Source: a virus | Lineage: Duplodnaviria > Heunggongvirae > Uroviricota > Caudoviricetes | DNA length: 38,076 nucleotides | Strand: one strand, 5' to 3' | Virus record (IMG/VR): IMGVR_UViG_2690316068_000004 | Span: 1-38,076 of that record | In this document: positions 20,374 to 24,054 of the stretch, one piece after another | Layout of the letters: the number at the start of each line of letters is the position of its first letter | Numbering within the stretch: position 1 is the first letter of the stretch | The notes under the pieces: model-generated | What the model was told of the DNA's origin: nothing | The model's database searches: none | What the model saw: only the letters and a program-made list of their open reading frames with translations | Position numbers and translations under genes: made by a program

Positions 20374-24054
<3,681 letters not shown>

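Follow-up and report, generated by a model that had tools for sequence, protein, structure and literature searches.

An in-frame amber codon in the terminase large subunit gene A of a lambdoid Escherichia coli prophage

The large terminase subunit gpA of bacteriophage lambda is the 641-aa product of gene A, a reading frame of 1926 nt (J02459, 711..2636) that starts with GTG, is located in the order cos-Nu1-A-W-B with overlaps to its neighbours, and encodes the domains GpA_ATPase and GpA_nuclease. A nuclease centre, a coiled-coil (dimerisation) helix and a portal tether belong to the described layout of gpA (PMC9026076), and a role in portal and prohead binding has been assigned to the C-terminal tail (PMC4856287; PMC9026076). 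The kind of lesion considered here has been known since the classical amber mutants of lambda A. [quoted passage not shown] The protein lacking only these last 5 residues nicks DNA normally, prohead binding is abolished and the phage yield is very low, but a co-infecting A+ phage rescues the mutant about 2000-fold (PMC4856287).

Here we describe a natural nonsense allele of A in a resident prophage of Escherichia coli. The window, i.e. the whole stretch of DNA analysed, comprises the 38,076 nt of the IMG/VR virus record IMGVR_UViG_2690316068_000004. The phage, resident as a lambdoid prophage in a natural E. coli lineage, is not lambda itself, from which it differs by another lysis cassette, another immunity region, its tRNA genes and its icd/sitABCD-associated site. 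Positions 1..858 on the plus strand hold sitD, encoding an iron/manganese ABC transporter permease, directly beside the prophage end that carries the tail fibre gene. Related prophages (e.g. in PG20180057 and APEC O18) are found between icd/int and sitABCD, with int/xis on the icd side, which the window does not include. The late genes occur in the order Nu1 (181 aa), A, W (68 aa), B (533 aa), C (439 aa), D (110 aa) and E (341 aa), followed by FI, FII, Z, U, V, G, T, H (853 aa), M, L, K, I and J (1132 aa), and the lambda-type morphogenesis genes other than A have lambda-like lengths throughout. A laboratory lambda Aam derivative was considered as the source and ruled out, as only 97.6% of A is identical to lambda A (47 nt differ) and the surrounding prophage is different.

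Several genes outside the packaging region were noted in addition. The tail fibre gene (1863..5159, minus strand, 1098 aa) encodes a prophage tail-fibre N-terminal domain, long Ala/Ser-rich repeats and, at the C-terminus, Peptidase_S74, a domain acting as an intramolecular chaperone; the fibre gene is not followed by a separate gene for tail-fibre assembly. A gene for a Bor-family lipoprotein (26356..26649, plus strand) is located downstream of Rz on the opposite strand, and its identical neighbours in relatives are annotated as Iss, the serum-survival protein. The rexAB slot between the cI-like repressor gene (34722..35423) and N is occupied by two overlapping genes (35463..36020 and 36017..36769, both plus strand) that PADLOC weakly matches to PDC-M24A (E 5e-4) and PDC-M24B (E 5e-10), a candidate defence pair; the second of the two genes encodes a DUF1828 protein that is present in very many E. 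coli prophages. The antiterminator gene Q is at 28918..29436, and the tRNA gene pair sits between Q and the holin gene.

The features needed for the following analysis are, in window coordinates:

24776..24787, minus strand: cosN cohesive-end 12-mer GGGCGGCGACCT, identical to lambda, upstream of Nu1 (sequence match)
24055..24600, minus strand: terminase small subunit of the Nu1 type, 181 aa, intact, overlapping the start of A (Pfam Phage_Nu1)
22410..24080, minus strand: 5′ part of A, 557 sense codons that specify the larger part of the nuclease domain and, before it, the TerS-binding region and the ATPase motor (Pfam; identity to intact relatives)
22407..22409, minus strand: codon 558 of A, an amber codon (TAG) in frame whose next base is C; the examined relatives and lambda all encode Gln (CAG) at this point
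22155..22406, minus strand: untranslated rest of A, 83 in-frame codons and TGA (Pfam; identity to intact relatives)
21952..22158, minus strand: W, head-tail joining, 68 aa, intact, its ATG overlapping the TGA of A (open reading frame)
26684..27676, minus strand: endolysin-Rz fusion reading frame, 330 aa, with a private insertion of one T (TT to TTT) at window position ~27169
28699..28854, minus strand: genes for tRNA-Thr(UGU) and tRNA-Asn(GUU), flanked by Q and the holin gene (ARAGORN, Rfam)

Gene A, encoding a lambda A-type terminase large subunit, extends from 24080 to 22155 on the minus strand according to its translation; the strand had been left unstated in the original prediction. From a GTG start, the frame runs through 557 sense codons ending in …FDLTEA, is interrupted by TAG at 22409..22407 (CTA on the plus strand) and continues for 83 sense codons, beginning with QLTAEEQVEKWVDGRKK, to a TGA that forms an ATGA overlap with the start of the W frame at 22158. 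This arrangement was reproduced exactly on retranslation, at the positions originally given, and the total of 1926 nt equals lambda A, which had been predicted as well and which we found for J02459. Gene A of the window and lambda A align without gaps at 97.6% nucleotide identity, with 47 nt and, including the stop, 12 aa differences. Codons 553–563 read DLTEAQQLTAE in lambda versus DLTEA, stop, QLTAE in the window, corresponding to GCG CAG CAG CTG versus GCG TAG CAG CTG at codons 557–560. A stop codon would arise from about 4% of the single substitutions possible in gene A.

A-like genes were found in 3784 of 5426 complete E. coli genomes, with up to 7 per genome. The nearest of them, those of Q5, PG20180057, A20 and A36, are 99.9% identical and annotated as an intact 641-aa protein (WP_042024084.1 / WP_001027170.1). 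They have 0–1 other nucleotide differences and the same flanking genes as the window (iss/bor, a TonB-like gene, Nu1, W and B), but contain CAG at codon 558. Over the 1926 aligned nucleotides, A departs from the E. coli Q5 allele solely by the C-to-T exchange at gene nt 1672, so that the single CAG-to-TAG change postulated from the lambda Gln codon was borne out. This exchange is also essentially the sole substitution over ~6 kb of aligned flanking sequence, where the remaining differences are a 1-nt deletion belonging to Q5 itself and an insertion junction. Both protein pieces are 100% identical to the 641-aa protein of PG20180057 (residues 1–557 and 559–641). All of the 13 relatives inspected (Q5, PG20180057, A20, A36 and the loci L007–L015) share CAG at codon 558 with lambda, and in these comparisons no homologue was seen to end naturally at codon 557; homologues ending there were what the original prediction had named as speaking against it. 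As a separate observation, the prophage of Q5 (locus L001), the nearest relative in which A is intact, has defects of its own: an inserted integrase-bearing element interrupts the portal gene, and the Rz gene is frameshifted (L001 5126..5959 and 1..397).

A 61-mer centred on the TAG had no exact match among 2661 matching places in the 5426 complete E. coli genomes, and 36-mer and 23-mer sequences containing it had none in species-representative genomes, viral contigs and metagenome contigs. The 557-aa product, in contrast, is present in identical form in three assemblies, namely as NCBI entry KSZ18728.1, labelled 'terminase [Escherichia coli]' and encoded on a 305-kb contig, and in the Logan assemblies of ERR13499507 and SRR2724133; the ERR13499507 contig is common to two samples. 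A literature search turned up no paper naming KSZ18728 or either of the two read sets. Alignment of the two retrieved carrier loci (L005 and L006) with the window gave 100% identity over 21.7 and 16.2 kb, with the TAG included. Because the same product recurs in three assemblies and both loci agree perfectly with the window, the codon is not a random read error, and the possibility that resequencing would reveal CAG is thereby effectively answered at the assembly level. The TAG is thus, as judged from these sequences, a reproducible feature of one clone, and it is not conserved in the family. The assemblies carrying it may be resequenced isolates of that one clone, hence they demonstrate reproducibility, not spread.

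In the Pfam comparison, GpA_ATPase (PF05876) was detected at residues 47–285 (E 6e-50, above the curated cut-off). GpA_nuclease covers residues 322–600 of the intact homologue, and the stop is located inside this domain. The intact Q5 protein matches the nuclease profile in one stretch (profile positions 2–286), whereas in the window the match is divided between the 557-aa product (residues 322–548, profile positions 2–236 of 294) and residues 1–42 of the 83-codon piece (profile positions 244–286). The locus is colinear with lambda A and is embedded in the cos-Nu1-A-W-B context, and the ATPase domain is present; a whole nuclease domain in one polypeptide is absent, and so is the portal-binding tail from the product, being encoded 3′ of the TAG. 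As far as the sequence tells, the DNA at A represents a lambda-type gpA orthologue whose encoded product is truncated. The end of the nuclease domain with E586 and D589 in the NEALDCFVYALAAL motif (RNEALDCFVYALAAL) is encoded beyond the TAG, as are a predicted coiled-coil helix and the portal-binding C-terminal tail. Given the resemblance of the motif to RNase-H-like terminase nucleases and lambda genetics, E586 and D589 of RNEALDCFVYALAAL would be expected to contribute catalytic acidic residues, a role for which there is reportedly support from earlier work. A search of the PDB returned no sequence homologue in which residue 558 could be placed in the fold.

The lambda literature backs the earlier statement that the missing C-terminus is needed for prohead docking, the relevant mutant being Aam42 (PMC4856287). 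Like Aam42, the window allele is a nonsense mutation in A that removes the C-terminal prohead- and portal-binding segment, and both count as recessive packaging defects, for which an amber suppressor or complementation in trans would be expected to bring rescue. Since a loss of 5 residues already abolishes docking, the loss of 84 residues should do so too, and docking by the 557-aa product should accordingly be abolished on this analogy. The two alleles differ in their origin, the one described here being natural and located in a resident prophage, and probably in their effect on DNA cutting: Aam42 nicks cos, but with the stop within GpA_nuclease and part of this domain gone, nicking and cutting of cos are probably lost besides docking.

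ARAGORN and Rfam agree on only two tRNA genes in the window, Thr(UGU) at 28699..28774 and Asn(GUU) at 28780..28854. No tRNA with a CUA anticodon was detected in the window by either program, in line with what had been read from the letters before. Rfam detected nothing else in the window, so that the search for a dedicated suppressor tRNA or signal yielded the two tRNAs only, and a conserved stop was not seen, the 61-mer with the TAG occurring at 0 of the 2661 E. coli places and without exact matches elsewhere. Hence nothing in these searches indicates programmed recoding at the A amber codon.

Breakage of gpA in resident prophages is commonplace. On hundreds of contigs, gene calling has given the status of a gene in its own right to a 72-aa reading frame that starts from a GTG 12 codons past the position of the TAG. 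The idea that homologues are naturally split at codon 558 was rejected on inspection of nine such places: all nine are different, indel-broken pseudogenes with CAG at codon 558. A recurrent break is a deletion of 1–2 nt in a run of five T (gene nt 1653–1657, around codon 553), for example in L008 (KB021600.1), L011 (CP015887.1) and L014 (CP015891.1). These three share with the window a gpA broken near codons 553–561 and the same 72-aa frame, but they differ from it in the lesion (1–2 nt deletions in the T run or other indels), in having CAG at codon 558 and in a background that is 97% identical. The deletion, at ~3947–3951 of the three loci and at 15 similar places, is 15 nt upstream of the TAG position, and the T run is possibly a homopolymer hotspot. 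Gene fragments for other lengths of the gpA C-terminus (73–145 aa) are equally abundant. The clustering of breaks near codons 553–561 is an ascertainment effect, because the 72-aa frame is called only when the break lies just upstream and the loci were found via that frame.

The prophage carries a further lesion in its lysis cassette. An extra T at endolysin codon ~170 joins a complete lysozyme domain in frame to a complete Rz, yielding a reading frame with the domains Phage_lysozyme and Phage_lysis. Among 1584 matching places in complete E. coli genomes, no exact match to a 61-mer with this insertion was found, while L005 and L006, identical to the window, share it. The GTG start codon of Rz and its Shine-Dalgarno sequence are untouched by the insertion, and the fusion may or may not affect lysis; it may add a second defect. 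When stop-to-stop reading frames were compared with eight related loci, only A and the R-Rz fusion were flagged among real genes, and this comparison revealed no further split or fused real gene in the prophage. Two private disruptive mutations, on a background that otherwise hardly differs from intact relatives, are consistent with a decay of the prophage that set in only recently.

We consider a recent spontaneous nonsense mutation in A of a decaying prophage to be very probably the correct explanation. The premature in-frame stop faces a sense codon in the close orthologues, and the lesion recurs in three assemblies, with the two retrieved loci 100% identical to the window. A C-to-T transition would have converted CAG to TAG at codon 558, and in a non-suppressing host translation would stop at residue 557. 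The product would keep the TerS-binding region and the ATPase motor but would lack the last ~50 nuclease positions, the coiled-coil dimerisation helix and the portal-binding tail. With neither proper cos cutting nor prohead docking, we infer that A function is lost and that the prophage would be unable to package its own DNA. Together, the amber codon and the private frameshift in the lysis cassette would represent early mutational decay.

A sequencing or assembly error, with CAG as the true codon and an intact gene, could be suspected for a single-base substitution that occurs in no other genome of the collections searched and that comes from a draft assembly with a 305-kb contig. This is nevertheless very improbable, as the same truncated protein is found in an NCBI record and, separately, in two Logan read sets, both retrieved loci agree with the window over 16–22 kb including the TAG, and identical substitution errors are not expected in separate runs. 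Alternatively, the amber codon might be practically silent if a supE-like glnV/glnX suppressor of the host or read-through by tRNA-Gln provided enough full-length gpA for a viable phage. In E. coli, UAG is subject to misreading by tRNA-Gln, and a C at the +4 position goes along with inefficient termination (PMC5289835), so that rare read-through would regenerate wild-type gpA, the original residue being Gln. The allele may therefore be slightly leaky, and any residual activity would stem from such misreading in the weak termination context of UAG-C. The 83 downstream codons are still identical to those of intact relatives, which would suit continued translation; yet such perfection is equally expected of a very recent mutation, with one substitution in ~6 kb relative to Q5. 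Amber suppressor alleles are features of laboratory strains, and the window contains no suppressor tRNA gene. No relative keeps a stop at codon 558, hence there is no sign of selection for recoding. Natural read-through is low, moreover, and in hosts without a suppressor the yield of lambda A amber mutants is very low (PMC4856287). A phage kept viable by leakiness is consequently very unlikely in our view.

The prophage could be defective alone and still be mobile if a co-resident lambdoid prophage or a superinfecting phage supplied terminase in trans. The cosN site identical to lambda, Nu1 and head and tail genes that all look intact, the up to seven A-like genes in a single E. coli genome and the roughly 2000-fold rescue of Aam42 by a co-infecting A+ phage (PMC4856287) are compatible with this. 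Although the R-Rz fusion may be a second defect, we grant such rescue a small chance; it modifies the main explanation and does not replace it, as A would still be a pseudogene. Selection of the truncation for a terminase beneficial to the host, for example one that acts as a dominant-negative subunit on the terminase of incoming lambda-like phages, appears extremely improbable. The retained TerS-binding and ATPase parts and the independent T-run deletions that break gpA near the same place in other prophages might be cited for it, but the clustering is due to ascertainment, with fragments of 73–145 aa being equally abundant, and the amber allele is confined to one clone. The late genes of lambda are, furthermore, silent in the lysogen. 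There is likewise hardly any probability for the wider proposal that the truncated TerL is not dead and acts either by interference with packaging or through UAG-C as a conditional switch with Gln read-through, the nearby breaks then reflecting selection. If the former were true, a TerS-binding, ATPase-competent but nuclease- and portal-defective TerL would hinder packaging by incoming lambda-like phages; if the latter, Gln read-through would keep the prophage barely viable.

With a spontaneous nonsense mutation as the preferred reading, the A amber allele is a nonsense pseudogene of the ordinary kind, carried by a defective prophage and explained by decay without a new mechanism, and it has little importance beyond annotation. 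NCBI already contains the 557-aa 'terminase' (KSZ18728.1) and, in other records, the 72-aa fragment with the sequence of the downstream frame. The locus should be labelled as a pseudogene of A, in place of separate entries for a 557-aa 'terminase' and a 72-aa 'terminase gpA endonuclease subunit'. Surveys of prophage intactness or transduction risk should score this prophage as packaging-defective, and a possible use is that of a natural A-amber control for packaging or helper-phage work. As a natural and otherwise isogenic amber allele that is one substitution away from an intact relative, it illustrates cleanly how the decay of a prophage begins.
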